From Squalus acanthias (taxonomy: Eukaryota), in assembly GCA_030390025.1 (NCBI GenBank), contig JASTWF010000033.1, forward strand, positions 1,614,001 to 1,678,000: a DNA stretch of 64,000 nucleotides, written 5' to 3'. Positions 3,001 to 55,391 of the stretch are shown here, piece after piece; positions within the stretch are counted from its first letter, which is position 1, and each line of letters begins with the position of its first letter. Position numbers and translations under genes: made by a program. Below the pieces are notes generated by a model that was not told where the DNA came from, searched no databases, and saw nothing but the letters and a program-made list of their open reading frames with translations.

Positions 3001-6000
3001 ACTCTCTCACACTCCCTCTCTCACACTCACTCTCTCATACTCAATCTCTCTCACACACCGTCTCTCTCAGACTCACTCTCTCACTCACACTCTCTCTCAG
3101 AATCACTCTCTCACACACACTGTCTCTCTTAAACTCACTCTCTCATACACTGTCTCTCTCAGACTCTCTCTCTCTCACACATTCTCACACATTCACTCTC
3201 TCACACACTGTCTGTCAGACTCCCTTCCTCACACACTCTCTCTCAGCCTCACTCTCTCACATACTGTCTATCTGGCTCACTCTCTCACACAACGTCTCTC
3301 ACACTCACTCTTTCATACTCACTCTCTCTCACACACCGTCTCTCTCAGACTCACTCTCTCACTCACACTCTCTCTCAGAGTCACACTCTCACACACACTC
3401 TCTCTCTTAAACTCACTCGCTCATACATGCTCTCTCTCAGACCATCTCTCTCAGACTCACTCTCTCATGCACTGTCTCTCTCAGACTATCTTTCACACAC
3501 TCTCTCAGATTCAATCTCTCACACACACTCTCTCTCTCAGACTCACTCTCTCATACACCCTCTCTCTCAGACTAACTCTCTCATACACTGTCTCTCTCAG
3601 ACTCAATCTCTCATACATTGCCTCTCTCTCAGACTCACTTTCTCACACACTGTCTCTCTCAGTCTCACTCTCTCACACACTTTCTGTCAGACTCACTCTC
3701 TCACACACTGTCTCCCTCAGACTGCCTCTCAAACACTGTCTCTCAGTCTCACTCTCTCACACACCGTTTCTCTCACACTCTCTCTCACACACACTGTCTC
3801 TCTCAGACTCTCTCTCTCACACACTGTCTCTCTCAGACTCACTCTCTCTGTTACTGTCTCTCTCAGACTCACTCTCTCAAACACTGTCTCTCTCAGACTC
3901 TCTCTCACAGTCTCTCTCAGGCTCACGCTCTAAAATAACACTGTCTCTGTCAGACTCACTTTCTCACACACTCTTTCTCTCTCAGGCTCACTCTCTCACC
4001 CAATGTCTCTCTCAGATTCACTCTCTCACACACCGTCTCTCTCAGACTCACTCTCTCACACTGTCTCTCTCAGACTCTCTCACACACTCTCTCTCAGACT
4101 CACTCTCTCACTCACTTTCTCTCTCAGACTCACTCTCTCACACACCGTCTCTCTCAGCCACACACTCTCACACACTCTCTCAGACTCTCTCACACACTCT
4201 AACACTCACTGTCTCACACACTGTCTCTCTCAGACACCGTCTCTCTCAGACTCACTCTCTCACACGCTGCGTCTCTCAGACACATTCTCTCACACTGTCT
4301 CTCTCAGACTCTCTCTCACACACTGTCTCTCTCAGACTCACTCTCTCACACTCCGTTTCTCTCAGACTCACTCTCACACACTATCTTTCAGACTCAGTCT
4401 CACACAATTTCTCTTTCAGACTCACTCTCGCACACACTGTCTCTCTCAAACTCACTCTCTCAAACACCAGCTCTCTCAGACTCAGTCTCTCTCACACCCT
4501 CTCAGACTCACTCTCTCACACACTGTCTCTCTCTCAGACTCACTCTGTCACACACTCTCTCGCTCAGACTCTCTCACACTCTCTCTCTCAGACTCACTCT
4601 CTCACACACACTTTCAGACTCACTCTCTCACACACTGTCTCTCTGTCTCACTCTCTCACACACTGTCTGTCAGTCTCACTCTCTCACACACTGTCTCTCA
4701 GACTCCCTCACTCACAAACCGTCTCTCTCAGACTCTCTCTCACACACTGTCTCTCTCAGACTCACTCTCTTTCACACTCTCTCTCTCACACTCTCTCTCA
4801 CACACTGTCTCTCTCAGACTCACTCTCTCTCACACTCTCTCTCACACTCTCTTTCACACACTGTCTCTCTCACACTCACACTCTCTTAGACACTCTCTCA
4901 CACTCACTCTCACACTCACTCTCTCACTCACTCTCACACTCTATCACACTCACTCTCACACTCACTCTCACACTCTCTCACACACACTATCACACACTCA
5001 CTCTCTCACACTCACACTCTCTCACACACTCTCTCACACTCACTCTCACACTCACTCTCTCACTCACTCTCACACTCTCTCACACTCACTCTCACACTCA
5101 CTCTCACAATCACTCTCACAATCTCTCTCACACTCTCTCTCACACTCTATCTCACACTCTCTCTCACACTCTCTCTAACACTCTCTCTCACAATCTCTCT
5201 CACTCTCTCTCTCGCACTCTCTCACTCTCTCTCACAAAACTCTCTCACACACTCTCTCTCACACACTCTCTCACACTCACTCTCTCACACTCACTCTCAC
5301 ACACTCACTCTCTCATACTCACTCTCTCTCACACACCGTCTCTCTCAGACTCACTCTCTCACTCACACTCTCTCTCAGAAACACTCTCTCACACACACTC
5401 TCTCTCTTAAACTCACTCTCTCATACACTGTCTCTCTCAGACTCTCCCTCTCTCACACATTCTCACACATTCACTCTCTCACACACTGTCTGTCAGACTC
5501 ACTCCCTCACACACTCTCTCTCAGCCTCACTCTCTCACATACTGTCTATCTGGCTCACTCTCTCACACAACGTCTCTCACACTCACTCTCTCACACTCAC
5601 TCTCGCACACTGTCTCTCTCAGACTCTCTCTCACACACTTTCTCTCTCAGACTCACTCTCTCACACTCTGTATCTGACTCACTCTCTCATTTTCGGACTC
5701 TCTAAGACCATCTCTCTCAGACTCACTCTCTCATGCACTGTCTCTCTCAGACTCACTCTCTCACACACTGTCTCTCTCAGACTCACTCTCTCGCACACTG
5801 TCTCTCTCAGACACTCTCTTTCACTCTCTCTCACACACTCTCTCTCACTCACTCTCTCGCACTCACACTCTCTCACACACTCTCTCACACTCACTCTCAC
5901 ACTCACTCTCACACTCACTCTCACACTCTCACACTCACTCTCACACTCACTCTCACACTCACTCTCACACTCTCTCACACTCACTCTCACACTCACTCTC

Positions 6001-9000
6001 ACACTCTCTCTCACACTCTCTCTCACACACTCTCTCACACTCTCTCTCACACTCTCTCTCACACTCCCTCATGCTCTCTCTCACACTCTCTCTCACACTC
6101 TCTCTCACACTCTCTCCCTCACTCTCTTTCACTCTCTCTCACACACTCTCACACTCTCTCTCACACACTCTCTCACACTCACTCTCTCACACTCACTATC
6201 TTACACTTACTCTCTCACCCGCACTCTCTCACACTCACACTCTCACACACCGTCACTCTCAGACTCACTCTCTCACACACACTCTCTCTCTTAAACTCAG
6301 TCTCTCATACACTGTCTCTCTCAGACTCTCTCTCTCTCACACATTCTCACACATTCACTCTCTCACGCACTGTCTGTCAGACTCACTCCCTCACACACTC
6401 TCTCTCAGACTCTCTCTCACACACTGTCTCTCTGACTCACACTCTCATACACTGTATCTGACTCGCTCGCTCATACACGGTCTATCTCAGACCATCTCTC
6501 TTAGACTCACTCTCTCACGCACTGTCTCTCTCAGACTATCTCTCACACACTCTCTCAGATTCAATCTCTCACACACACTCTCTCTCAAACTCACTCTCTC
6601 ATACACTCTCTCTCTCAGACTCACTCTCTCATAAACTGTCTCTCTCAGACTCACTCTCTCAAACATTGCCTCTCTCTCAGACTCACTTTCTCACACACTG
6701 TCTCTCTCAGTCTCACTCTCTCACACACATTCTGTCAGACTCACTCTCTCACACACTGTCTCCCTCAGACTCTCTCTCAAACACTGTCTCTCAGTCTCAC
6801 TCTCTGACACACTGTCTCTCTCAGACTCTCTCTCACACACACTGTCACTCTCAGACTCACTCTCTCTGTTACTGTCTCTCTCAGACTCACTCTCTCAAAC
6901 ACTGTCTCTCTCAAACTCTATCACACTGTCTCTCTCAGGCTCACGCTCTAAAATAACACTGTCTCTGTCAGACTCACTTTCTCACACACTCTCTCTCTCT
7001 CAGGCTCACTCTCTCACCCACTGTCTCTCTCAGATTCACTCTCTCACACACTGTCTCTCTCAGACTCACTCTCTCACACTGTCTCTCTCAGACTCACTCT
7101 CTCACTCACTTTCTCTCTCAGACTCACTCTCTCACACACCGTCTCTCTCAGCCACACACTCTCACACACTCTCTCAGACTCTCTCACACACTCTAACACT
7201 CACTGTCTCACACACTGTCTCTCTCAGACACCGTCTCTCTCAGACTCACTCTCTCACACGCTGCGTCTCTCAGAGTCACTCTCTCACACTGTCTCTCTCA
7301 GACTCTCTCTCACACACTGTCTCTCTCAGACTCACTCTCTCACACACCGTTTCTCTCAGACTCACAATCACACACTGTCTTTCAGACTCATTCTCACACA
7401 ATGTCTCTTTCAGACTCACTCTCGCACACACTGTCTCTCTCAAACTCACTCTCTCAAACACCAGCTCTCTCAGACTCAGTCTCTCACACACACTCTCAGA
7501 CTCACTCTCTCACACACTGTCTCTCTCTCAGACTCACTCTCTCACACACTGTCTCGCTCAGACTCTCTCACACTCTCTCTCTCAGACTCACTCTCTCACA
7601 CACACTTTCAGACTCACTCTCTCACACACTGTCTCTCTGTCTCACTCTCTCACACACTGTCTGTCAGTCTCACTCTCTCACACACTGTCTCTCAGACTCC
7701 CTCACTCACACACCGTCTCTCTCATACTCACTCTCACACACACTGTCTCTCTCAGACTCACTCTCTCTCACACTCTCTCTCTCAGAATCTCTCTCACAAT
7801 CTGTCTCTCTCAGAGTCACTCTCTTTCACACTCTCTCTCTCACACTCTCTCTCACACACTGTCTCTCTCAGACTCACTCTCTCTCACACTCTCTCTCACA
7901 CTCTCTTTCACACACTGTCTCTCTCAGACTCACTCTCTCACACTGTCTCTCAGTCTCACTTTCTCACTCACTCACTCTCTCACACTGTCTCTCTCTGACT
8001 CACTCTCACACTTTCTCTCTCAGACTCACTCTCTCACACTGTCTCTCTGAGACTCTCTCACACACTGTCTCTCTGACTCACTCTCACACACTGTCTCTCT
8101 CAGACCCACTCTCTTTCACGCTCTCTCTCTCACACTCTCTCTCACACACTGTCTCTCTCAGACTCACTCTCTCTCACACTCTCTCTCACACTCTCTTTCA
8201 CACACTGCCTCTCTCAGGCTCACTCTCTCTCACACTCTCTCAGACTCTGTCTCACACACCATCTCTCTCAGACTCACACTCTCACACTGTCTCTCAGTCT
8301 CACTTTCTCACTCACTCACTCTCTCACACTGTCTCTCTCTGACTCACTCTCACACTTTCTCTCTCAGACTCACTCTCTCACACTGTCTCTCTCAGACTCT
8401 CTCACACACTGTCTCTCTGACTCACTCTCACACACTGTCTCTCTCAGACTCACTCTCTTTCACGCTCTCTCTCTCACACTCTCTCTCACACACTGTCTCT
8501 CTCAGACTCACTCTCTCTCACACTCTCTCTCACACTCTCTTTCACACACTGCCTCTCTCAGGCTCACTCTCTCTCACACTCTCTCAGACTCTGTCTCACA
8601 CACCATCTCTCTCAGACTCACACTCTCACACTGTCTCTCAGTCTCACTTTCTCACTCACTCACTCTCTCACACTGTCTCTCTCTGACTCACTCTCACACT
8701 TTCTCTCTCAGACTCACTCTCTCACACTGTCTCTCTCAGACTCTCTCACACACTGTCTCTCTGACTCACTCTCACACACTGTCTCTCTCAGACTCACTCT
8801 CTTTCACGCTCTCTCTCTCACACTCTCTTTCACACACTGCCTCTCTCAGGCTCACTCTCTCTCACACTCTCTCAGACTCTGTCTCACACACCATCTCTCT
8901 CAGACTCACACTCTCACACTGTCTCTCCGTCTCACTTTCTCACTCACTCACTCTCTCACACTGTCTCTCTCTGACTCACTCTCACACTGTCTCTCTCAGA

Positions 9001-9410
9001 CTCACTCTCTCACACTGTCTCTCTCAGACTCTCTCTCACACTGTCTCTCTGACTCACTCTCACACACCGTCTCTCTCAAGTTCTCTCTCACACCCTGTCT
9101 CTCAGACTCACTTTCTCACACAGTCTCTCTCAGATTATCTCTCTCTCACACTGTCTCTCTCAGACACACTCTCTCACACACTGTCTCTCTCAGACTCACT
9201 CTCTCTCACACTGTCACTCTCAGACTCACTCTCTCACACACTGTCTCTCTCTCTCAGACTCTCTCACACTGTCTCTCTCAGACTCACTCTCATACAAACT
9301 GTCTCTCTCAGACTCTCTCTCTCACACGCTCACTCTCTCTCACACTGTCTCTCTCAGACTCATTCTCTCACACACTCTCTCTCGCTCACCCTCTCTCTCT
9401 CACACAGACT
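1..9410. repeat. Complex CT/CA-rich satellite built from ctct/caca/ctcagactca/cactgtct motifs, with higher-order structure
   Basis: The + strand is almost entirely C/T/A with short recurrent motifs. Rare landmark words recur (ggctcacgctctaaaa at ~1448, 2091, 3920, 6938). The long S/L/H/T ORFs result from low complexity. The array runs off the left edge of the window. Confidence 0.95.
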
Positions 9411-12256: not shown

Positions 12257-13270
12257 ATTGCCCTCATGTCGAAGCTTTGAAGGATATTGTCATATATCCC
12301 TATTGCCCTTATTGAGGTATTGGAGGATATTGTCATATATCCCTATTGCCCTTATTGACGTATTGGAGGATATTGTCATATATCCCTATTGCCCTTATTG
12401 AGGTATTGTAGGATATTGTCATATATCCCTATTGCCCTTATTGACGTATTGGAGGATATTGTCATATATCCCTATTGACCTTATTGAGGTATTGGAGGAT
12501 ATTGTCATATATCCCTATTGCCCTTTTTGAGGTATTGGAGGATATTGTCATATATCCCTATTGCCCTTATTGACGTATTGGAGGATATTGTCATATATCC
12601 CTGTTGACCTTATTGAGGTATTGGAGGATATTGTCATATACCCCTATTGTCCTTATTGAGGTATTGTAGGATATTGTCATATATCCCTATTGTCCTTATT
12701 GAGGTATTGTAGAATATTGTCATATATCCCTATTGACCTTATTGAGGTATTGAAGGATATTGTCATATATCCCTATTGACCTTATTGAGGTATTGAAGGA
12801 TATTGTCATATATCCCTATTGACCTTATTGAGGTATTGGAGGATATTGTCTTATATCCCTATTGACCTTATTGAGGTATTGAAGGATATTGTCATATATC
12901 CCTATTGACCTTATTGAGGAATTGGAGGATATTGTCATATATCCCTATTGCCCTTATGGAGGTATTGGAGGATATTGTCATATATCTCTATTGACCTTAT
13001 TGAGGTATTGTAGGATATTGTCATATATCCCTATTGCTCTTATTGAGGTATTGGAGAATATTGTCATATATCCCTATTGCCCTTATTGAGATATTGGAGG
13101 ATATTGTCATATATCCCTATTGCCCTTATTGAGGTATTGGAGGATATTGTCATATATCCCTATTGACCTTATTGAGATATTGGAGGATATTGTCATATAT
13201 CACTATTGGCCTTATTGAGGTATTGGAAGATAGTGTCATATATCCCTATTGCCCTGAGGTGGAGGTATTA
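12257..13270 (+). repeat. 43-bp tandem minisatellite (~23 copies)
   Basis: Unit tattgcccttattgaggtattggaggatattgtcatatatccc repeated head to tail with point variants. Confidence 0.95.
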
Positions 13271-32059: not shown

Positions 32060-32405
32060 CCTCACTCAGTGGGCTACTGAGCAATGCAGGAAGGGCTCAG
32101 GCCTAATGAATATCTTCATGCTCAGGTTAAGTTATCACTGCCCAGGCACTCTCTGATTCCAGTCTTGCACACGTTGCTAAGTTTCGAATGCTGCATTTTT
32201 CACACTGGCAACGAATTGATTGATAGCCATGCCTGTGATAAGCTAAGTGTGTTAGGGAAATGCAGTGGGCAAAAAGATACACGGAAGACTGATAATAACC
32301 GTGACTGTCCTGACACTGTGAGCTGCAGTTAAATGTTGGCAACATTTCAAGTCTCAATCAGCAAGTCTAATAGTTGACAGAAAGGGCTAATCATTTCCTG
32401 CCTTC
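32060..32405 (-). repeat. Inverted copy of part of the 2.03-kb unit, capping the left end of the array
   Basis: Reverse complement of the unit segment at ~34190-34507. Confidence 0.9.
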
Positions 32406-32896: not shown

Positions 32897-32969
32897 GCCG
32901 AAATAGCTCAGTTGGAAGAGCGTTAGACTAAAGATCCAACGGTCCCTGGTTCGATCCAGGGTTCCGGCA
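32897..32969 (+). pseudogene. tRNA-Phe-derived copy, anticodon mutated to AAA (unit 1)
   Basis: GCCGAAATAGCTCAG...GGTTCGATCC, with changes in the D-loop, anticodon stem and acceptor stem. Confidence 0.8.
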
Positions 32970-33034
32970 GGTTTTAGTTACTTTTTGTCTGCTTCACTAT
33001 AAGAGGAACGATTCAGGAGAGATTTTTCACTTCT

Positions 33035-33137
33035 GAGCCAGCGTCTACCAAAGAAATGGGCCCGAACCACGTTAGATCCGGCTCCAGCCGCCCGCTGCTG
33101 GTTCGAATCCAGTCGGGGTCCCGCCGGCTCTCTTTTT
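33035..33137 (+). ncRNA. Candidate tRNA-Trp-like Pol III small RNA (unit 1)
   Basis: B box GGTTCGAATCC at 33100-33110 inside the T-arm GCTGG/CCAGT; terminal stem GAGCCAGCG/CGCCGGCTC; TTTTT terminator. Confidence 0.5.
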
Positions 33138-33389
33138 ACCGGGACAGTGTTGGAGGGAGGGGCTGTTCAGCGGTGGTGCGATAATAAATTTTAGAATGAG
33201 TTTTGTTAGATTAAAGAGCTCTTTCTCTGTAACTTTCGATTGACACTCTGCCCAGTTGTATACAGGAACAGTTGACAATGTTTAAGCGATGTGGTGTGTT
33301 CAATGTTTGTGCAGTAACTCGGTCACCGAGTATGAGCCTGAAAAACAATTTCCCAGCCTGGGTTTGTGCCTATCTACTGAGCGCTTTGC

Positions 33390-33464
33390 GGCCGGTTAGC
33401 TCAGTTGGTGAGAGCGTGGTCCGAATAACGCTCAAGGTCGCGGGTTCGATCCCCGTACGGGCCA
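33390..33464 (+). pseudogene. tRNA-Ile(AAT), damaged anticodon arm (unit 1)
   Basis: GGCCGGTTAGCTCAG...CCCCGTACGGGCCA, with CCGAAT in place of GCTAAT and a 1-nt insertion. Confidence 0.8.
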
Positions 33465-33979
33465 TCAGAATGTTTTCATAATTTTACGCTTTTCTCGCAC
33501 ATTTCAAATAGAAACTTTATAATGAAACCAATCCACGCAGACTCTCACGGGGGATTTATTTGGAATAACATCCATTGCACCTTTGCCACCGAGGCGGAGA
33601 GACGTTTATTTGTGTTTGTAGGTTTGCTGATGAACGTTCAACTGGCGGCCTGTTCCCGTTAATGGTCACAAGCGGGTAAGAGACAGACAGAGCGGCTCTG
33701 ACCCCGCGAGATGGGCAAAAGGCTCAGGAGTAACTGCATCAATGAAATGTAGGCCCGCCCCCGAGAGAGGCAACATCCAGAGCACAGAAGGAAATCGATT
33801 TCAAGTGCATGCCTACCCGCACTTGCTGCCGTGGTTTCGCGAACACGTCTTTTGTGTTCTCAACTAAAACATGTCATTTTGTACGAACAGTTTGCCTGGC
33901 GCGAAAGTATCTGAATTTCAAAGGAGCACGCAGGAAAGACTGCCTTGCTGTGCTTTCTGGCAGGTAGCTTGCTGGAGCT

Positions 33980-34051
33980 TCCCTGGTGGTGTAGTGGTTA
34001 GGATTCGGCGCTTTCACCACCGCGGCCCGGGTTCGATTCCCGGTCAGGGAA
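33980..34051 (+). tRNA. tRNA-Glu(TTC) (unit 1), with D-stem and anticodon-stem mismatches
   Basis: TCCCTGGTGG...CGGCG-CT-TTC-AC-CACCG...GGTTCGATTCCCGGTCAGGGAA. Confidence 0.75.
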
Positions 34052-34926
34052 CAGTGCGTTTTGGGGCTGTTTGAATTGCCACCATTCAACGCACGTTCGT
34101 GAAATAATGCTTGCCCTTGATCGAACAAAACAGTGATGCAAAATGCACTGCCTTGATTTCTGCAACATGCATGCTGTTTCAAAGTCAGCAGGAAATGATT
34201 AGCCCTTTCTGTCAACTTTTAGACTTGCTGATTGACACTTGAAATGTTGCCAACTTTTTACTGCAGCTCACAGTGTCAGGACAGTCACGGTTATTATCAG
34301 TCTTCCGTGTATCTTCTTGCCCACTGCATCTCCCTAACAAACTTAGCTTATCAATCAATTCGTTGCCAGTGTGAAAAATGCAGCATTCGAAACTTAGCAA
34401 CGTGTGCAAGACTGGAATCAGAGAGTGCCTGGTCAGTGATAACTTAACCTGAGCATGAAGATATTCATTAGGCCTGAGCCCTTCCTGTATTGCCCACTGA
34501 ATGAGGAACGAAGAGCCCACAGACCGGGGATGGAGCCTGGGCATTTTCAGTTCTGTGTGGGAGCACCATACCTGCGGCTGAAGATTGAACTTGACATCAT
34601 TTCAGCTTGGCTCGTGCTCAGTGAGACTTCGGCCCGTCTCTCCCTTCACAACCCATCAGTGCGGAGAAAAGAACATTGAATTTTACACATGTGTTGTGTT
34701 CTGTAACTGTATCGGTGCATTCCACGCTGTGTCCAACACGGTGAGGTCCCCCCGGCTGTGTCAGCTTTGTATCTTTATCCACAACCCAGCTTTACATGAA
34801 CACAACCTGAGCTCCGAGATCTGGTCGGGTCACATTGCCCGAAGTGAGGAATGAGCCGGAGGAGTAATGCCACCCGGGGTTAGAAAATCCTCCAAAAGAA
34901 TGACACAAGATGGAATTTGCTTTGAG

Positions 34927-34999
34927 GCCGAAATAGCTCAGTTGGGAGAGCGTTAGACTGAAGATCTAAAGGTCTCTGGTTCGATCCCGGGTTTGGGCA
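34927..34999 (+). tRNA. tRNA-Phe(GAA) (unit 2)
   Basis: Near-canonical 73-mer with a G:G acceptor mismatch (TTTGGGC), followed by T-runs. Confidence 0.85.
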
Positions 35000-35064
35000 G
35001 GTTTTAGTTACTTTTTGTCTCCTTCACTATAAGAGGAACGATTCAGGAGAGATTTTCCACTTCT

Positions 35065-35167
35065 GAGCTCGCGTCTACCAAAGAAATGGGCCCGAACCAC
35101 GTTAGATCCGGCTCCAGCCGCCCGCTGCTGGTTCGAATCCAGTCGGGGTCCCGCCGGCTCTCTTTTT
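35065..35167 (+). ncRNA. Candidate tRNA-Trp-like Pol III small RNA (unit 2)
   Basis: Same architecture as 33035-33137. Confidence 0.5.
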
Positions 35168-35418
35168 ACCGGGACAGTGTTGGAGGGAGGGGCTGTTCAG
35201 CGGTGGTGCGATAATAAATTTTAGAATGAGTTTTGTTAGATTAAAGAGCTCTTTCTCTGTAACTTTCGATTGACACTCTGCCCAGTTGTATACAGGAACA
35301 GTTGACAATGTTTAAGCGATGTGGTGTGTTCAATGTTTGTGCAGTAACTCGGTCACCCAGTATGAGCCTGAAAACAATTTCCCAGCCTGGGTTTGTGACT
35401 ATGTAGTGGGCGCTTTGC

Positions 35419-35493
35419 GGCCGGTTAGCTCAGTTGGCGAGAGCGTGTTGCTAATAACGCTCAAGGTCGCGGGTTCGATCCCCGTACGGGCCA
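35419..35493 (+). tRNA. tRNA-Ile(AAT) (unit 2), with a 1-nt insertion and a stem mismatch
   Basis: Matches the vertebrate Ile-AAT body; anticodon loop CT-AAT-AA. Confidence 0.75.
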
Positions 35494-36008
35494 TCAGAAT
35501 GTTTTCATAATTTTACGCTTTTCTCGCACATTTCAAATAGAAACTTTATAATGAAACCAATCCACGCAGACTCTCACGGGGGATTTATTTGGAATAACAT
35601 CCATTGCACCTTTGCCACCGAGGCGGAGAGACGTTTATTTGTGTTTCTGGGTTTGCTGATGAACGTTGAACTGGCGGCCTGTTCCCGTTAATGGTCACAA
35701 GCGGGTAAGAGACAGGCAGAGCGGCTCTGACCCCGCGAGATGGGCAAAAGGCTCAGGAGTAACTGCATCAATGAAATGTAGGCCCGGCCCCGAGAGAGGC
35801 AACATCCAGAGCACAGAAGGAAATCGATTTCAAGTGCATGCCTACCCGCACTTGCTGCCGTGGTTTCGCGAACACGTCTTTTGTGTTCTCAACTAAAACA
35901 TGTCATTTTGTACGAACAGTTTCCCTGGCGCGAAAGTATCTGAATTTCAAAGGAGCACGCAGGAAAGACTGCCTTGCTGTGCTTTCTGGCAGGTAGTTTG
36001 CTGGAGCT

Positions 36009-36080
36009 TCCCTGGTGGTCTAGTGGTTAGGATTCGGCGCTTTTACCACCGCGGCCCGGGTTCGATTCCCGGTCAGAAAC
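36009..36080 (+). pseudogene. tRNA-Glu body with TTT anticodon (unit 2)
   Basis: Loop CT-TTT-AC; acceptor 3' strand TCAGAAA instead of TCAGGGA. Confidence 0.75.
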
Positions 36081-36958
36081 CAGTGTGTTTTGGGGCTGTT
36101 TGAATTGCCACCATTCAACGCACGTTCGTGAAATAATGCTTGCCCTTGATCGAACAAAACAGTGATGCAAAATGCACTGCCTTGATTTCTGCAACATGCA
36201 TGCTGTTTCAAAGTCAGCAGGAAATGATTAGCCTTTTCTGTCAACTTTTAGACTTGCTGATTGACACTTGAAATGTTGCCAACTTTTTACTGCAGTGTCA
36301 GGACAGTCACGGTTATTATCAGTCTTCCGTGTATCTTCTTGCCCACTGCATCTCCCTAACAAACTTAGCTTATCAATCAATTCGCTGCCAGTGTGAATAA
36401 TGCAGCATTCGAAACTTAGCAACGTGTGCAAGACTGGAATCAGAGAGTGCCTGGTCAGTGATAACTTAACCTGAGCATGAAGATATTCATTAGGCCTGAG
36501 CCCTTCCTGTATTGCCCACTGAGTGAGGAACGAAGAGCCCACAGACCGGGGATGGAGCCTGGGCATTTTCAGTTCTGTGTGGGAGCACCATACCTGCGGC
36601 TGAAGATTAAACTTGACATCATTTCAGCTTGGTTCGTGATCAGTGCGGCTCAGTGAGACTTCGGCCCGTCTCTCCCTTCACAACCCATCAGTGCGGAGAA
36701 AAGAACATTGAATTTTACACATGTGTTGTGTTCTGTAACTGTATCGGTGCATTCCACGCTGTGTCCAACACGGTGAGGTCCCCCCGGCTGTGTCAGCTTT
36801 GTATCTTTATCCACAACCCAGCTTTACATGAACACAACCTGAGCTCCAAGATCTGGTCGGGTCACATTGCCCGAAGTGAGGAATGAGCCGGAGGAGTAAT
36901 GCCACCCGGGGTTAGAAAATCCTCCAAAAGAATGACACAAGATGGAATTTGCTTTGAG

Positions 36959-37031
36959 GCCGAAATAGCTCAGTTGGGAGAGCGTTAGACTGAAGATCTA
37001 AAGGTCTCTGGTTCGATCCCGGGTTTGGGCA
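36959..37031 (+). tRNA. tRNA-Phe(GAA) (unit 3)
   Basis: Same sequence as the unit 2 copy. Confidence 0.85.
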
Positions 37032-37096
37032 GGTTTTAGTTACTTTTTGTCTCCTTCACGAAAAGAGGAACGATTCAGGAGAGATTTTCCACTTCT

Positions 37097-37199
37097 GAGC
37101 TCGCGTCGACCAAAGAAATGGGCCCGAAACACGTTAGATCCGGCTCCAACCGCCCGCTCCTGGTTCGAATCCAGTCGGGGTCCCGCCGGCTCTCTTTTT
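37097..37199 (+). ncRNA. Candidate tRNA-Trp-like Pol III small RNA (unit 3, several private substitutions)
   Basis: B box and terminator intact; the CGGC/GCCG hairpin and the first T-stem base are altered. Confidence 0.4.
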
Positions 37200-37451
37200 A
37201 CCTGGACAGTGTTGGAGGGAGGGGCTGTTCAGCGGTGGTGCGATAATAAATTTTAGAATGAGTTTTGTTAGATTAAAGAGCTCTTTCTCTGTAACTTTCG
37301 ATTGACACTCTGCTCAGTTGTATACAGGAACAGTTGACAATGTTTAAGCGATGTGGTGTGTTCAATGTTTGTGCAGTAACTCGGTCACCCAGTATGAGCC
37401 TGAAAAACAATTTCCCAGCCTGGGTTTGTGACTATGTAGTGGGCGCTTTGC

Positions 37452-37525
37452 GGCCGGTTAGCTCAGTTGGTGAGAGCGTGTTGCTAATAACGCCAAGGTC
37501 GCGGGTTCGATCCCCGTACGGGCCA
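37452..37525 (+). tRNA. tRNA-Ile(AAT) (unit 3)
   Basis: 74-mer with one anticodon-stem mismatch (TGTTG/CGCCA). Confidence 0.85.
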
Positions 37526-38040
37526 TCAGAATGTTTTCATAATTTTACGCTTTTCTCGCACATTTCAAATAGAAACTTTATAATGAAACCAATCCACGCA
37601 GACTCTCACGGGGGATTTATTTGGAATAACATCCATTGCACCTTTGCCACCGAGGCGGAGAGACGTTTATTTGTGTTTCTGGGTTTGCTGATGAACGTTG
37701 AACTGGCGGCCTGTTCCCGTTAATGGTCACAAGCGGGTAAGAGACAGACAGAGCGGCTCTGACCCCGCGAGATGGGCAAAAGGCTCAGGAGTAACTGAAT
37801 CAATGAAATGTAGGCCCGGCCCCGAGAGAGGCAACATCCAGAGCACAGAAGGAAATCGATTTCAAGTGCATGCCTACCCGCACTTGCTGCCGTGGTTTCG
37901 CGAACACGTCTTTTGTGTTCTCAACTAAAACATGTCATTTTGTACGAACAGTTTCCCTGGCGCGAAAGTATCTGAATTTCAAAGGAGCACGCAGGAAAGA
38001 CTGCCTTGCTGTGCTTTCTGGCAGGTAGTTTGCTGGAGCT

Positions 38041-38112
38041 TCCCTGGTGGTCTAGTGGTTAGGATTCGGCGCTTTTACCACCGCGGCCCGGGTTCGATTC
38101 CCGGTCAGAGAA
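38041..38112 (+). tRNA. tRNA-Glu body with TTT anticodon (unit 3), possibly a pseudogene
   Basis: Loop CT-TTT-AC; acceptor 3' strand TCAGAGA; A and B boxes intact. Confidence 0.7.
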
Positions 38113-38990
38113 CAGTGTGTTTTGGGGCTGTTTGAATTGCCACCATTCAACGCACGTTCGTGAAATAATGCTTGCCCTTGATCGAACAAAACAGTGATGC
38201 AAAATGCACTGCCTTGATTTCTGCAACATGCATGCTGTTTCAAAGTCAGCAGGAAATGATTAGCCTTTTCTGTCAACTTTTAGACTTGCTGATTGACACT
38301 TGAAATGTTGTCAACTTTTTACTGCAGTGTCAGGACAGTCACGGTTATTATCAGTCTTCCGTGTATCTTCTTGCCCACTGCATCTCCCCAACAAACTTAG
38401 CTTATCAATCAATTCGTTGCCAGTGTGAAAAATGCAGCATTCGAAACTTAGCAACGTGTGCAAGACTGGAATCAGAGAGTGCCTGGTCAGTGATAACTTA
38501 ACCTGAGCATGAAGATATTCATTAGGCCTGAGCCCTTCCTGTATTGCCCACTGAGTGAGGAACGAAGAGCCCACAGACCGGGGATGGAGCCTGGGCATTT
38601 TCAGTTCTGTGTGGGAGCACCATACCTGCGGCTGAAGATTAAACTTGACATCATTTCAGCTTGGTTCGTGATCAGTGCGGCTCAGTGAGACTTCGGCCCG
38701 TCTCTCCCTTCACAACCCATCAGTGCGGAGAAAAGAACATTGAATTTTACACATGTGTTGTGTTCTGTAACTGTATCGGTGCATTCCACGCTGTGTCCAA
38801 CACGGTGAGGTCCCCCCGGCTGTGTCAGCTTTGTATCTTTATCCACAACCCAGCTTTACATGAACACAACCTGAGCTCCGAGATCTGGTCGGGTCACATT
38901 GCCCGAAGTGAGGAATGAGCCGGAGGAGTAATGCCACCCGGGGTTAGAAAATCCTCCAAAAGAATGACACAAGATGGAATTTGCTTTGAG

Positions 38991-39063
38991 GCCGAAATAG
39001 CTCAGTTGGGAGAGCGTTAGACTGAAGATCTAAAGGTCTCTGGTTCGATCCCGGGTTTGGGCA
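38991..39063 (+). tRNA. tRNA-Phe(GAA) (unit 4)
   Basis: Same sequence as the unit 2 copy. Confidence 0.85.
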
Positions 39064-39128
39064 GGTTTTAGTTACTTTTTGTCTCCTTCACTATAAGAGG
39101 AACGATTCAGGAGAGATTTTCCACTTCT

Positions 39129-39231
39129 GAGCTCGCGTCTACCAAAGAAATGGGCCCGAACCACGTTAGATCCGGCTCCAGCCGCCCGCTGCTGGTTCGA
39201 ATCCAGTCGGGGTCCCGCCGGCTCTCTTTTT
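39129..39231 (+). ncRNA. Candidate tRNA-Trp-like Pol III small RNA (unit 4)
   Basis: Same architecture as 33035-33137. Confidence 0.5.
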
Positions 39232-39483
39232 ACCGGGACAGTGTTGGAGGGAGGGGCTGTTCAGCGGTGGTGCGATAATAAATTTTAGAATGAGTTTTGT
39301 TAGATTAAAGAGCTCTTTCTCTGTAACTTTCGATTGACACTCTGCTCAGTTGTATACAGGAACAGTTGACAATGTTTAAGCGATGTGGTGTGTTCAATGT
39401 TTGTGCAGTAACTCGGTCACCCAGTATGAGCCTGAAAAACAATTTCCCAGCCTGGGTTTGTGACTATGTAGTGGGCGCTTTGC

Positions 39484-39557
39484 GGCCGGTTAGCTCAGTT
39501 GGCGAGAGCGTGTTGCTAATAACGCCAAGGTCGCGGGTTCGATCCCCGTACGGGCCA
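39484..39557 (+). tRNA. tRNA-Ile(AAT) (unit 4)
   Basis: 74-mer with the same anticodon-stem mismatch. Confidence 0.85.
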
Positions 39558-40072
39558 TCAGAATGTTTTCATAATTTTACGCTTTTCTCGCACATTTCAA
39601 ATAGAAACTTTATAATGAAACCAATCCACGCAGACTCTCACGGGGGATTTATTTGGAATAACATCCATTGCACCTTTGCCACCGAGGCGGAGAGACGTTT
39701 ATTTGTGTTTCTGGGTTTGCTGATGAACGTTGAACTGGCGGCCTGTTCCCGTTAATGGTCACAAGCGGGTAAGAGACAGGCAGAGCGGCTCTGACCCCGC
39801 GAGATGGGCAAAAGGCTCAGGAGTAACTGCATCAATGAAATGTAGGCCCGGCCCCGAGAGAGGCAACATCCAGAGCACAGAAGGAAATCGATTTCAAGTG
39901 CATGCCTACCCGCACTTGCTGCCGTGGTTTCGCGAACACGTCTTTTGTGTTCTCAACTAAAACATGTCATTTTGTACGAACAGTTTCCCTGGCGCGAAAG
40001 TATCTGAATTTCAAAGGAGCACGCAGGAAAGACTGCCTTGCTGTGCTTTCTGGCAGGTAGTTTGCTGGAGCT

Positions 40073-40144
40073 TCCCTGGTGGTCTAGTGGTTAGGATTCG
40101 GCGCTTTTACCACCGCGGCCCGGGTTCGATTCCCGGTCAGAGAA
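40073..40144 (+). tRNA. tRNA-Glu body with TTT anticodon (unit 4), possibly a pseudogene
   Basis: Same sequence as the unit 3 copy. Confidence 0.7.
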
Positions 40145-41022
40145 CAGTGTGTTTTGGGGCTGTTTGAATTGCCACCATTCAACGCACGTTCGTGAAATAA
40201 TGCTTGCCCTCGATCGAACAAAACAGTGATGCAAAATGCACTGCCTTGATTTCTGCAACATGCATGCTGTTTCAAAGTCAGCAGGAAATGGTTAGCCTTT
40301 TCTGTCAACTTTTAGACTTGCTGATTGACACTTGAAATGTTGCCAACTTTTTACTGCAGTGTCAGGACAGTCACGGTTATTATCAGTCTTCCGTGTATCT
40401 TCTTGCCCACTGCATCTCCCTAACAAACTTAGCTTATCAATCAATTCGCTGCCAGTGTGAAAAATGCAGCATTCGAAACTTAGCAACGTGTGCAAGACTG
40501 GAATCAGAGAGTGCCTGGTCAGTGATAACTTAACCTGAGCATGAAGATATTCATTAGGCCTGAGCCCTTCCTGTATTGCCCACTGAGTGAGGAACGAAGA
40601 GCCCACAGACCGGGGATGGAGCCTGGGCATTTTCAGTTCTGTGTGGGAGCACCATACCTGCGGCTGAAGATTAAACTTGACATCATTTCAGCTTGGTTCG
40701 TGATCAGTGCGGCTCAGTGAGACTTCGGCCCGTCTCTCCCTTCACAACCCATCAGTGCGGAGAAAAGAACATTGAATTTTACACATGTGTTGTGTTCTGT
40801 AACTGTATCGGTGCATTCCACGCTGTGTCCAACACGGTGAGGTCCCCCCGGCTGTGTCAGCTTTGTATCTTTATCCACAACCCAGCTTTACATGAACACA
40901 ACCTGAGCTCCAAGATCTGGTCGGGTCACATTGCCCGAAGTGAGGAATGAGCCGGAGGAGTAATGCCACCCGGGGTTAGAAAATCCTCCAAAAGAATGAC
41001 ACAAGATGGAATTTGCTTTGAG

Positions 41023-41095
41023 GCCGAAATAGCTCATTTGGGAGAGCGTTAGACTGAAGATCTAAAGGTCTCTGGTTCGATCCCGGGTTTGTGCA
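41023..41095 (+). pseudogene. tRNA-Phe(GAA) (unit 5), with further A-box and acceptor changes
   Basis: AGCTCATTTGG and TTTGTGCA variants. Confidence 0.75.
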
Positions 41096-41160
41096 GGTTT
41101 TAGTTACTTTTTGTCTCCTTCACTATAAGAGGAACGATTCAGGAGAGATTTTCCACTTCT

Positions 41161-41263
41161 GAGCCAGCGTCTACCAAAGAAATGGGCCCGAACCACGTTA
41201 GATCCGGCTCCAGCCGCCCGCTGCTGGTTCGAATCCAGTCGGGGTCCCGCCGGCTCTCTTTTT
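41161..41263 (+). ncRNA. Candidate tRNA-Trp-like Pol III small RNA (unit 5)
   Basis: Same sequence as the unit 1 copy. Confidence 0.5.
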
Positions 41264-41515
41264 ACCGGGACAGTGTTGGAGGGAGGGGCTGTTCAGCGGT
41301 GGTGCGATAATAAATTTTAGAATGAGTTTTGTTAAATTAAAGAGCTCTTTCTCTGTAACTTTCGATTGACACTCTGCCCAGTTGTATACAGGAACAGTTG
41401 ACAATGTTTAAGCGATGTGGTGTGTTCAATGTTTGTGCAGTAACTCGGTCACCCAGTATGAGCCTGAAAAACAATTTCCCAGCCTGGGTTTGTGCCTATC
41501 TAGTGGGCGCTTTGC

Positions 41516-41589
41516 GGCCGGTTAGCTCAGTTGGTGAGAGCGTGTTGCTAATAACGCCAAGGTCGCGGGTTCGATCCCCGTACGGGCCA
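41516..41589 (+). tRNA. tRNA-Ile(AAT) (unit 5)
   Basis: 74-mer with the same anticodon-stem mismatch. Confidence 0.85.
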
Positions 41590-42104
41590 TCAGAATGTTT
41601 TCATAATTTTACGCTTTTCTCGCACATTTCAAATAGAAACTTTATAATGAAACCAATCCACGCAGACTCTCACGGGGGATTTATTTGGAATAACATCCAT
41701 TGCACCTTTGCCACCGAGGCGGAGAGACGTTTATTTGTGTTTCTGGGTTTGCTGATGAACGTTGAACTGGCGGCCTGTTCCCGTTAATGGTCACAAGCGG
41801 GTAAGAGACAGACAGAGCGGCTCTGACACCGCGAGATGGGCAAAAGGCTCAGGAGTAACTGCATCAATGAAATGTAGGCCCGGCCCCGAGAGAGGCAACA
41901 TCCAGAGCACAGAAGGAAATCGATTTCAAGTGCATGCCTACCCGCACTTGCTGCCGTGGTTTCGCGAACACGTCTTTTGTGTTCTCAACTAAAACATGTC
42001 ATTTTGTACGAACAGTTTGCCTGCCGCGAAAGTATCTGAATTTCAAAGGAGCACGCAGGAAAGACTGCCTTGCTGTGCTTTCTGGCAGGTAGTTTGCTGG
42101 AGCT

Positions 42105-42176
42105 TCCCTGGTGGTCTAGTGGTTGGGTTTCGGCGCTTTCACCACCGCGGCCCGGGTTCGATTCCTGGTCAGGGAA
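42105..42176 (+). pseudogene. tRNA-Glu(TTC) (unit 5), D-arm damaged
   Basis: GGTTGGGTTT in place of GGTTAGGATT; anticodon TTC; acceptor stem intact. Confidence 0.75.
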
Positions 42177-43050
42177 CAGTGTGTTTTGGGGCTGTTTGAA
42201 TTGCCACCATTCAACGCACGTTCGTGAAATAATGCTTGCCCTTGATCGAACAAAACAGTGATGCAAAATGCACTGCCTTGATTTCTGCAACATGCATGCT
42301 GTTTCAAAGTCAGCAGGAAATGATTAGCACTTTCTGTCAACTTTTGGACTTGCTGATTGACACTTGAAATGTTGCCAACATTTAACTGCAGCTCACAGTG
42401 TCAGGACAGTCACGGTTATTATCAGTCTTCCGTGTATCTTCTTGCCCACTGCATCTCCCTAACAAACTTAGCTTATCAATCAATTCGTTGCCAGTGTGAA
42501 AAATGCAGCATTCGAAACTTAGCAACGTGTGCAAGACTGGAATCAGAGAGTGCCTGGTCAGTGATAACTTAACCTGAGCATGAAGATATTCATTAGGCCT
42601 GAGCCCTTCCTGTATTGCCCACTGAGTGAGGAACGAAGAGACCACAGGCCGGGGATGCAGCCTGGGCATTTTCAGTTCTGTGTGGGAGCACCATACCTGC
42701 GGCTGAAGATTGAACTTGACATCATTTCAGCTTGGCTCGTGCTCAGTGAGACTTCGGCCCGTCTCTCCCTTCACAACCCATCAGTGCGGTGAAAAGAACA
42801 TTGAATTTTACACATGTATTGTGTTCTGTAACTGTATTGGTTCATTCCACGCTGTTTCCAACACTGTGAGGTCCCCCCGGCTGTGTCAGCTTTGTATCTT
42901 AATCCACAACCCAGCTTTACATGAACACAACCTGAGCTCCGAGATCTAGTCGGGTCACATTGCCCGAAGTGAGGAATCTGCCGGAGGAGTCATGCCACCC
43001 GGGGTTAGAAAATCCTCCAAAAGAATGACACAAGATGGAATTTGCTGTGA

Positions 43051-43123
43051 GCTCGAATAGCTCAGTTGGGAGAGCGTTAGACTGAAGATCTAAAGGTCAC
43101 TGGTTCGATCCCGGGTTTTGGCA
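43051..43123 (+). pseudogene. tRNA-Phe(GAA) (unit 6), acceptor stem damaged
   Basis: GCTCGAATAGCTCAG...TTTTGGCA. Confidence 0.75.
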
Positions 43124-43187
43124 GGTTTTAGTTACTTTTTGTCTCCTTTATTATAGAGGAACAATTCAGGAGAAATTTTTCATTTCT

Positions 43188-43290
43188 GAGCCCGCGTCTA
43201 CCAAAGAAATGGGCCCGAACCACATTCGATCCGGCTCCAGCCGCCCGCTGCGGGTTCGAATCCAGTCGGGGTCCCGCCGGCTCTCTTTTT
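43188..43290 (+). ncRNA. Candidate tRNA-Trp-like Pol III small RNA (unit 6, diverged)
   Basis: B box, terminal stem and T5 retained; the T-stem has one mismatch (GCGGG/CCAGT). Confidence 0.4.
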
Positions 43291-44150: not shown

Positions 44151-44224
44151 TGTTTCCACCCGGGATCGAACCGGGGACTATTTCGCGTGTGGAGCGAACG
44201 TGATAATTGGTACAATGCGGAATC
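44151..44224 (-). pseudogene. Degenerate tRNA-Val(CAC)
   Basis: Minus strand TTATCACGTTCGCTCCACACGCGAAA...CCCCGGTTCGATCCCGGGTGGAAACA; D-arm decayed. Confidence 0.75.
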
Positions 44225-52239: not shown

Positions 52240-52287
52240 TGTTTCTCCCCGGGCTCGAACCGGGGAGCTTTCGCGTGTGAGGCGAAC
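52240..52287 (-). pseudogene. 3' two-thirds of tRNA-Val(CAC), truncated by a CR1 3' tail
   Basis: tgtttctccccgggctcgaaccgggg..tttcgcgtgtgaggcgaac, then a CR1 tail at ~52288-52387. Confidence 0.75.
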
Positions 52288-53556: not shown

Positions 53557-53590
53557 TTCCCTAACCGGGAATCGAACCCGGTTAACGGCG
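53557..53590 (-). pseudogene. tRNA-Glu 3' fragment (T-arm and acceptor strand)
   Basis: ttccctaaccgggaatcgaacccgg is the reverse complement of the Glu 3' end seen in the array. Confidence 0.6.
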
Positions 53591-54341
53591 CTGCTTGGAA
53601 TAGGTTATTGAATCATTTAAAGGTGCCCTCGAAAAATTTCACACTGCTAAATTAAAATCACTGCGACAATTTGTTTTGGTGTTGCAGAAGGGGATTGAAA
53701 ATGTTAATAAAAACGCCAGGCAACGCCCGTGGTGAGACAGGGTTCGAACTTACAAAGAAGTAACCGCTGCGAAGTAACCGCTGAGCTCAAGCTGACGCCG
53801 ATGAAATGGCGAGGAACCGCTCAATATAAAGGATGAGCTCACAAACATCAGGCGCAGTGCAGTCTGGTCACCATCAAGACCCTCCTTTCTTATTCAGAGA
53901 CATGAACGGGAGTCAGACGCCACAAACTTTACTTAAAAGCACAAATACGAGTAACGCTTATTTCCAAATTTTCACTGTTAAAATTATATCACTTTATTCC
54001 AAATCTGACTGCGTTGAATCTGAAAGGTAACACCATGGTGATTTGATGTTCAACTGCTGATTCTATTGTCTGTGCACGGTAGAAATAACCGGTCCTGTTC
54101 AATATGACAAAAGTTGCCCCAGATTCCTGGTGTCTTCAGCAATTAACATTTTAAACCAGACTCCTAACGTACATTGTGTAAAATGAGAAATGGGTAACAG
54201 TCAACATACAACGCACAAAATAAATGATTGAAGTATCGACTCTCGCTCAGTTACCATTTCTTTCATTGTGCAAAAGAAAATTATCGGTTAATTAATGATG
54301 CTTTTCCGCGAATGCAATATAAAAGTTGAACAAAAAGCACT

Positions 54342-54414: not shown

Positions 54415-55391
54415 CTCGCAAGTTTATACGTCTTTATCGCTGGTTGCAGCCAGGCGCCTGGTGGCTCAGCCCCAGGGGTGTAACTTGTTCTGCAAACCAC
54501 AAACCAGGTTCTCCAGAAACCCAAGGTGTCTAAGGAAATCAAGCATCAAAAGCCCTTTCATTAACCACAGGGATTCAGGCAATTTTCTGATCGCAAAGCG
54601 CTTTCAGTCCTTGTCAATATCTCTTGTCCATTTTCCGGTGTTTCCCGATTCTGTCTGTCCCTCTGGCTCTGTTTATTCTGTGTGTGGCCACCTGCATGTT
54701 GATTTTGAAGGAATAGCTGTGCTTGTGTCTGCTTGTTACTTTAAACAAATGAGGGCATGAGGCGCTTCTTTGCATGACACTGAGAAATCAGGAGCAGGCA
54801 GGAGAAATGAAACAGTGTTTGTGGAACGTGCCTATATACAAACATCTCCGTTTACACTGTGGACCTCGAGGCGCAACGTTAGCGCGTCTGACTCCAAATC
54901 AGAGGGCTGCGTGTTCCAATCACGTCGGGGACACTGTTCTACAGGATAATCCCGGAGTTAATGTTTTCTTTGCTGTTTCACAATAACCAGACTCATGCTC
55001 CAAAGTCTGTCTCACTAATTCCCCAGTGTCAGGGAGAGAAGCGCCTCAATTCCTCATTTATTTAATGTGGCAAGACACAAGCACAGGTATTCGTTCAAAA
55101 TCAACCTACAGGTGACCACACACTGAATAAACAGAGCCAGAGAGACAGACAGAATCGGGAAACACAGGGATATTGACAAGGAATGAAAGCGCTTTGCGAT
55201 CAGAAAATTGCCTGAATCCCTGTGGTTAATGAAAGGGCTTTTGATGCTTGATTTCCTCAGACACCTTGGGTTTCTGGAGAACCTGGCTCGTGGTTTGCAG
55301 AACAAGTTAAACCCCTGGGGCGGAGCCACCAGGCACCTGGCTGCAATCAGCGACAAGGACGTGTAAGTTTGTCAGGCCCGGCTAGCTCAGT
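54399..55391. repeat. ~360-bp inverted repeat (54399-54768 / 55037-55391) with a ~270-bp spacer
   Basis: The arms are reverse complements; the ORF track shows the same peptide on opposite strands. Confidence 0.92.
54862..54933 (+). pseudogene. tRNA-Trp(CCA), with A-box and B-box substitutions
   Basis: GACCTCG..GCGCAACG.TAGCGCG-TCTGA-CT-CCA-AA-TCAGA..GCGTG-TTCCAAT-CACGT-CGGGGACA. Confidence 0.8.

Follow-up and report, generated by a model that had tools for sequence, protein, structure and literature searches.

A tandem tRNA gene array of Squalus acanthias raises the question of what the fourth element of its repeat units is, the other three being the genes for tRNA-Phe, tRNA-Ile and tRNA-Glu. 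In a first-pass annotation of the window—the whole stretch of 64,000 nucleotides analysed here—this element, designated below as element X, was proposed to be a tRNA-Trp-like Pol III RNA without a D-stem, selected for its structure rather than being a decaying pseudogene.

Element X and the repeat units that carry it

The array (Table 1) comprises six Phe genes, six copies of element X, five Ile genes and five Glu-body genes, with the anticodons Phe(GAA) and Ile(AAT). The six positions of element X and its distance of 65 nt from the preceding tRNA-Phe, constant in all six units, agree with the annotation, the positions being borne out by a 24-mer covering the T-arm and the acceptor 3' strand, for which there are exactly six matches in the window at ≤3 mismatches, with 0.00 expected from 100 shuffles.

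Table 1 Coordinates of the array, the copies of element X, the parts of copy 1 and the variant tRNA-Trp in the window
Feature	Positions	Strand	Remark
Tandem array	32897..43290	+	units of ~2032 bp, tRNA-Phe - X - tRNA-Ile - tRNA-Glu
Element X, copy 1	33035..33137	+	103 nt
Element X, copy 2	35065..35167	+	24-mer match and copy alignment
Element X, copy 3	37097..37199	+	T-stem CCTGG, hairpin ACCG, TATA lost
Element X, copy 4	39129..39231	+	24-mer match and copy alignment
Element X, copy 5	41161..41263	+	24-mer match and copy alignment
Element X, copy 6	43188..43290	+	final array unit; older states: GCGGG T-stem with G.A mismatch, CATTCG
TATAAG	32998..33003	+	32-37 nt 5' of the proposed 5' end of copy 1
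Outer stem, 5' arm GAGCCAGCG	33035..33043	+	
Acceptor-like 5' strand GGGCCCG	33058..33064	+	
D-region remnant	33065..33078	+	without D stem, without A box
CGGC-UCCA-GCCG hairpin	33079..33090	+	remnant of the Trp anticodon loop CTCCAG
T-arm GCTGG-TTCGAAT-CCAGT	33097..33113	+	B box at 33100-33110
Acceptor-like 3' strand CGGGGTC	33114..33120	+	identical to the tRNA-Trp of this genome
Outer stem, 3' arm CGCCGGCTC	33122..33130	+	
T5 run	33133..33137	+	Pol III terminator-like
Variant tRNA-Trp	54862..54934	+	comparison copy of the first-pass annotation; 92% identical to canonical Trp

Most of the parts described in the annotation recur in all six copies of the window, i.e. the perfect B box GGTTCGAATCC, the acceptor-like helix GGGCCCG/CGGGGTC with 6/7 pairs (one of them G.U, and one G.G mismatch), the outer stem with 8/9 pairs (G.U counted) and the T5 run, and TATAAG is found upstream of four of the six. 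The CGGC-UCCA-GCCG hairpin, ascribed to every unit, is present in five copies and missing from one. The paired T-stem GCTGG/CCAGT, with five pairs including one G.U, holds for four of the six, copies 3 and 6 having CCTGG and GCGGG, respectively. It should be pointed out that the six copies are 98% alike and that their flanks are equally so, which makes the conservation of element X within the window uninformative. Concerning the outer stem, 8/9 Watson-Crick pairs were reached in 66 of 5000 flank shuffles and, within the window, at 23 of 1122 positions taken as controls (p about 0.013-0.02), a nominally unusual value for a stem that was, however, chosen post hoc.

Outside element X, the left edge of the array carries an inverted copy, about 320 nt long, of the Glu-Phe spacer (32078-32401 vs 34188-34496, 96-98% complementary), so that the junction is palindromic. 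Damaged anticodon loops are common among the array tRNAs (at 32897, 33390, 35419, 36009, 38041 and 40073 in the window, and in the loci L033, L034, L038 and L042), the damage consisting of Phe genes with AAA, Ile genes with 8-nt loops and Glu-body genes with TTT. Other Glu-body genes, located elsewhere, have CGC, CTG or TCA at this place, and ARAGORN mislabels them as Lys, Ala, Gln or SeC. The window also contains a CT/CA-rich low-complexity tract of 9.4 kb (1-9403) and a 43-bp tandem repeat in 22.8 copies with 94% matches (12277-13255).

In the genome, which amounts to 3.7 Gb in 3882 contigs, a 31-mer from the 3' part of element X has 410 matches at ≤3 mismatches, its reversed control having none; hence, element X has homologues beyond the array of the window and is not private to it. 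These matches are spread over numerous arrays, whose periods are about 2032, 2043 and 2055 bp, as well as over scattered single copies, and they are always located inside Phe-X-Ile-Glu units or their fragments, in line with the co-amplification with tRNA genes assumed in the annotation. Scans of metagenomes with a 24-mer and a 29-mer of element X gave 0 matches.

The copies fall into three subfamilies. The A-type makes up the large homogeneous arrays, including that of the window; the B-type, 87-93% identical to the window copy over element X and its immediate flanks, occupies contig C21 and other scattered or short arrays; and the C-type, represented by 12 of 14 further dispersed copies, has a 23-mer with 77 matches in the genome at ≤2 mismatches. 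In the C-type, element X is longer by 11 nt, its 5' strand GGGAGTG forms 4/7 pairs with a 3' strand that has stayed the same, 5/9 pairs make up the outer stem and the T run is T4. Some copies of the C-type recur at a period of ~6.25 kb (C1901:593512-620877, C2561:420894-439625 and C3839:2838-9113) and thus belong to a second, longer repeat unit holding the decayed Phe-X-Ile block. Between the C-type and the window copy, the segment ~33075-33360, i.e. the 3' half of element X and ~230 nt of spacer, is 93-97% alike, the remainder of the unit including the tRNA relics being ~70-76% alike; gene conversion or constraint could account for the conserved block.

Promoter elements, known RNA families and selection

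Were element X a working Pol III gene, a hybrid promoter made of TATAAG and the B box would drive the synthesis of a tRNA-like RNA of ~100 nt ending with oligo-U, and RNase P and RNase Z might trim this RNA to a minihelix of ~64 nt consisting of the acceptor and T-arm. Such a gene is unlikely, and the evidence bearing on it comes from the promoter elements, from the comparison with known families and from the tests for selection.

Among 72 copies of the family, the B box is kept in 68—a count inflated by the baits, which overlap the B box and with which the copies were found—and a run of at least T4 in 71, the T5 run having been retained despite two substitutions that shift it. TATAAG is situated 32-37 nt before the proposed (not mapped) 5' end, and either TATAAG or TATAAA is kept in 58 of the 72 copies; furthermore, the TATAAG block is identical in the consensuses of the A-type and C-type, with the surrounding spacer being ~72% alike. 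All these signals, together with the upstream TATA box seen in four of four sampled genuine tRNA-Trp genes, speak for a Pol III gene. In hybrid or type 3 Pol III genes (in the style of vault RNA, tRNA-Sec and U6), TATA is positioned ~25-30 nt upstream of the start and is accompanied by PSE and DSE. In genes of type 2, the B box is preceded by an A box at a distance of about 30-60 nt. Of the type 2 elements, the B box GGTTCGANNCC and oligo-T are present in element X, but the A box is lacking, which argues against a gene: the best match to TRGCNNAGTGG has four mismatches at nine specified positions and is no better than background windows, whereas the Phe, Ile and Glu genes of the array show one mismatch each in the same scan. 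The absence of a clear A box had already been stated in the annotation.

With regard to sequencing runs, a Logan contig of the run X8 lies over element X (33041-33181, 8 differing letters) and has the same states as the B-type copies, and the contig of the run X6 is near-identical over the stretch 32970-33389, to which the run X2 contributed no contig. In the run X1, the kind of which was guessed as RNA, only the spacer 33245-33336 is covered out of 32970-33389, with a word depth of up to 327; this cover could come from a fragment of a high-copy repeat or from a transcript.

No known family was hit by element X, a further point against a Pol III gene. ARAGORN, run for tRNA calling, yielded 22 tRNAs in the window and none at element X, and Rfam at the gathering score, applied to 30-58 kb, yielded 20 tRNAs and one vault RNA and nothing at element X. 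In a permissive Rfam search with element X alone, the best match was tRNA-Sec with 14.2 bits vs a threshold of 47 (E=2.6), mascRNA followed below its threshold (11.7 bits vs 42.5, E=9.7) and vault RNA (RF00006) gave no match at E≤10; at E≤5, there was no Rfam match for element X in a 2-kb context and no family for its C-type form. Membership of element X in the vault RNA or mascRNA family was rejected on these Rfam scores.

Element X is nevertheless comparable with these two families. It resembles vault RNA (RF00006) in having an internal B box, a terminal stem and a U tail, and differs from it in remaining without a vault match where the vault gene of the window reaches 53.8 bits. That gene (53709-53798, minus strand; Rfam gathering score 34) is likely a genuine vault RNA gene and is surrounded by clustered Val, Lys and Trp tRNA genes at a distance of ~10 kb from the array. 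mascRNA and menRNA (RF01684) arise through cleavage of long Pol II transcripts near the 3' end by RNase P and RNase Z; their reduced tRNA-like shape, with an acceptor helix and a T arm and with poor D and anticodon regions, is common to element X, which lies, instead, within a tRNA array and has its own T run. Consensus B boxes were also seen outside the called tRNAs at 44162-44172, 52251-52261 and 53568-53578, all on the minus strand, and may represent further tRNA relics.

As for the structure drawn in the annotation, 85.8% of its cells are paired in 43 distinct copies vs 85.7% in shuffles, its covariation score is 0.054 vs 0.055 in shuffles, and a double change was seen at one pair only, 401 of 500 shuffles of these 43 copies being as good or better. 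RNAalifold, applied to element X, gave a covariation term of -0.11 with 0/17 compensated pairs and preferred another fold, the partner of the 3' arm being there an internal stretch of element X, GATCCGGC. It should be noted, that the covariation test is a weak one, the real tRNA-Phe copies of the same arrays decaying freely too. The minimum free energy fold of element X has a z of -2.23 vs shuffles, a value in favour of a Pol III gene, and takes the shape of a rod, not that of the cloverleaf-like fold proposed previously.

The four substitutions in the T-stem were regarded in the annotation as jointly preserving the pairing; they were, however, not concurrent. The GCGGG/CCAGT version, with a G.A mismatch, is found in the B-type and C-type, in copy 6 of the window and in units at the edges of five or more arrays, and persists in 43 exact copies. 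The paired GCTGG version (T65) has 203 exact copies, nearly all of them inside long arrays. Because the G.A version occurs in the B-type and C-type and in edge copies, the pair was restored late and by a single change. A B-type copy and the majority array type are separated by six differences, with 22/25 pairs both before and after: G65T gains a pair, G53A loses one in the hairpin, C5T turns a C-G pair into U.G and three changes lie outside the stems. In a neutral model, where a pair is gained by 9 of 309 single changes, at least one gain among six has a probability of 0.16.

The variant of element X that swept the arrays has the best acceptor-plus-T minihelix (6/7 pairs in the acceptor, 5/5 in the T-stem), as would suit a working gene. 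Variants that break stems have, however, been homogenised as well: C94A, which disrupts the pair 3-94 of the outer stem, is present in 54 exact copies with long runs in four arrays, and the majority array type itself has the hairpin weakened by A53. The older C-type subfamily lacks the acceptor helix as well as the outer stem. The near-perfect acceptor helix, like the outer stem, is most likely a lineage-specific accident in a GC-rich and CCGG-rich sequence.

The comparison of subfamily consensuses—A built from 39 copies and B from 16, with three rows dropped—is the only rate comparison having some power. The two consensuses differ at 7/103 sites in element X, 0/73 in tRNA-Phe, 2/75 in tRNA-Ile and 0/65 plus 18/252 (18/317 together) in the spacers. 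Element X thus does not depart from the spacer (7/103 vs 18/317, p=0.64) and exceeds the tRNAs (2/148, p=0.035), the latter being distinguishable from the spacer (p=0.046); a conservation of element X beyond that of the spacer, which had been set beforehand as a condition for the structure-selected RNA, was therefore not observed. In 12 dispersed C-type copies, departures from the consensus amount to 0.072 per site in the part of element X not covered by the bait vs 0.018-0.044 in spacers.

At the level of individual copies, a parsimony tree of 43 complete units (15 incomplete ones were dropped) gave 0.71 changes per site for Phe, 0.58 for the Phe-X spacer, 0.77 for element X (0.99 outside the bait), 0.66 for the X-Ile spacer and 1.11 for Ile, and the variants common to at least two copies showed no difference between site classes. 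Departures at stem sites amount to 0.046 per site in tRNA-Phe vs 0.048 in element X of the same units, where tRNA-Phe has 30 broken pairs vs 9 kept. Since the real tRNAs behave like the spacer too, the copy-level tests of rates and of stem breakage are uninformative. Irrespective of what is encoded, no selection can be seen at the level of single copies here, and the copy-level decay of element X, equalled by that of the real tRNAs in the same units, says nothing against a gene.

Based on the above results, a structure-selected RNA is not sustained: covariation is lacking, stem-breaking variants have been homogenised, the helices are absent in the C-type and the divergence of the consensuses is spacer-like and above that of the tRNAs. 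The same points weigh against a working Pol III gene. A fuller version of the latter, according to which element X would be an expressed and hitherto undescribed hybrid-promoter gene in ~500 copies, releasing its minihelix as a mascRNA-like tRNA mimic and perhaps co-transcribed with the array tRNAs in oocytes, has to be taken as quite unlikely; if it were true, the T65 repair of the T-stem before the expansion of the big arrays would be a trace of selection.

Binding of TFIIIC to the intact B box is probable even now, the affinities given in PMC11724288 being nanomolar for the B box and micromolar for the A box. Element X could be maintained as a DNA site of the ETC kind, i.e. a B-box site for TFIIIC without recruitment of Pol III, adding to each unit TFIIIC density, a chromatin boundary or a clustering function; this is improbable. 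ETC sites are described as bound by TFIIIC without TFIIIB or Pol III (PMC11724288; PMC3395662), and element X shares their sequence layout, a consensus B box without a usable A box; the nanomolar affinity given above for B boxes also speaks for such a site. These sites are, however, defined by occupancy, and element X is known from its sequence layout and keeps a terminator and a TATA-like box. Moreover, each unit already contains three tRNA B boxes, making an extra one not obviously needed, and mutations of the B box occur in 4 of 72 copies although the sampling favoured its retention.

Relation to tRNA-Trp and mode of spread

Four loci (L051-L054) supplied the canonical tRNA-Trp sequence of this genome. 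The 64-nt core of element X aligns to it with a score of 36, the next of 18 tRNA classes reaching 29 and the shuffle null 11.6 +/- 3.9 with a maximum of 28 in 2000, which means that the similarity is to a specific tRNA. Element X and tRNA-Trp share CTCCAG, GCTGC and the whole 3' strand GTCGGGGTC, and to our knowledge, no other vertebrate isoacceptor has this acceptor strand of Trp. Both the derivation from a tRNA closest to tRNA-Trp and the loss of the D-stem, with just a stemless remnant left of the D region (Table 1), are thus in accordance with the annotation. By origin, element X is likely a relic of tRNA-Trp, as far as sequence comparison goes; it is likely rather than proven because the comparison set is incomplete, the 18 classes being those present in the sampled DNA.

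A relic of a tRNA other than Trp is very doubtful. In its favour are the moderate margin of the scores in a comparison of 18 classes and the flanks: those of the Trp genes and element X have only TTTTATA in common, which 108-172 of 2000 shuffles equal (for the B-type and C-type), and neither the A-type flanks nor the 5' flanks show any homology to the flanks of tRNA-Trp genes. The exact agreement with Trp in both the CTCCAG remnant and the 3' strand contradicts it. Flank homology to tRNA-Trp genes was accordingly discarded as not significant against shuffles.

The canonical tRNA-Trp genes themselves have a conserved GTATATATACAAACAT box ~24-38 nt upstream in all four sampled loci (L051-L054), and the variant tRNA-Trp of the window carries CCTATATACAAAC upstream (54825-54840). 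These boxes suggest that the tRNA-Trp isotype uses TATA-assisted Pol III promoters here.

Concerning the mode of spread, all 58 BLAST hits to element X (in 20 loci and the window) sit in unit spacers, usually with Phe before and Ile after. Two of them are truncated at the 5' end by rearrangement; in one of these, an inversion has placed the hit against the T loop of an inverted tRNA-Glu. In 14 of 14 further dispersed loci, too, the flanks of element X are unit spacer. Element X therefore never moves alone, so that its interpretation as a SINE head derived from a tRNA, or as some other mobile element inserted into the unit—suggested by the tRNA derivation, the B box and tens of single copies dispersed over many contigs—was rejected as having a negligible probability: unit spacers are found on both sides in 12 of 12 C-type copies and in the single copies of contig C21 (with the downstream match in L033 and L038 ending ~10 nt past element X), a Pol III T run follows directly in place of a body or tail, and some C-type copies reside in ~6.25-kb-period arrays of their own. 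With SINE heads, element X has in common the derivation from a tRNA, the B box and hundreds of copies; unlike them, it multiplies only within the 2-kb unit, without independent flanks, body and tail.

It appears, on balance, that element X is a hitch-hiking tRNA relic, most likely of tRNA-Trp(CCA), that is passively carried in the arrays, its RNA not being under selection; this is the probable, although by no means certain, explanation. A tRNA-Trp gene would have lost its D arm and A box and its anticodon arm would have shrunk before the Phe-X-Ile-Glu unit was amplified, and the relic would then have been carried along passively by unequal crossing-over and homogenisation of the arrays. The B box with the T arm, the 3' acceptor strand, the CTCCAG remnant and the oligo-T ~12 nt behind the acceptor end would be what remains of the original gene. 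From some copies, Pol III may produce transcripts at a low level, terminating at the T run.

Related gene clusters and meaning for the array family

By analogy, the nearest known counterparts of element X are degenerate tRNA copies inside amplified tRNA gene clusters of vertebrates. Xenopus reportedly has a 3.18-kb multi-tRNA repeat. In zebrafish, a tRNA-rich block lies on the long arm of chromosome 4 (PMC11075544). Clusters of this kind and the present array have in common a kilobase-sized multi-tRNA unit repeated hundreds of times, concerted evolution with the edge copies keeping older states, and many damaged anticodons and stems, a non-functional tRNA-like member being carried along. The array of S. 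acanthias differs from them in the composition of its unit—Phe, relic, Ile and Glu—and its relic is old enough to have formed three subfamilies, yet it has a perfect B box and a terminator. No publication describing a Phe-X-Ile-Glu unit turned up in a literature search that did not extend to subscription journals or to early work on Xenopus.

Since genuine tRNA genes are without copy-level constraint in such arrays, conservation within a single genome cannot decide there for or against a function. If expressed, element X would be a new tRNA-like Pol III RNA of very high copy number in a vertebrate. If, on the other hand, element X is the passively carried relic favoured here, the several hundred B-box relics would have to be annotated as tRNA-Trp-derived pseudogenes and should not be labelled as tRNAs, SINEs or new RNA genes. 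Concerted evolution is cleanly exemplified by this array family, in which variants that make pairs and variants that break them both sweep the arrays.
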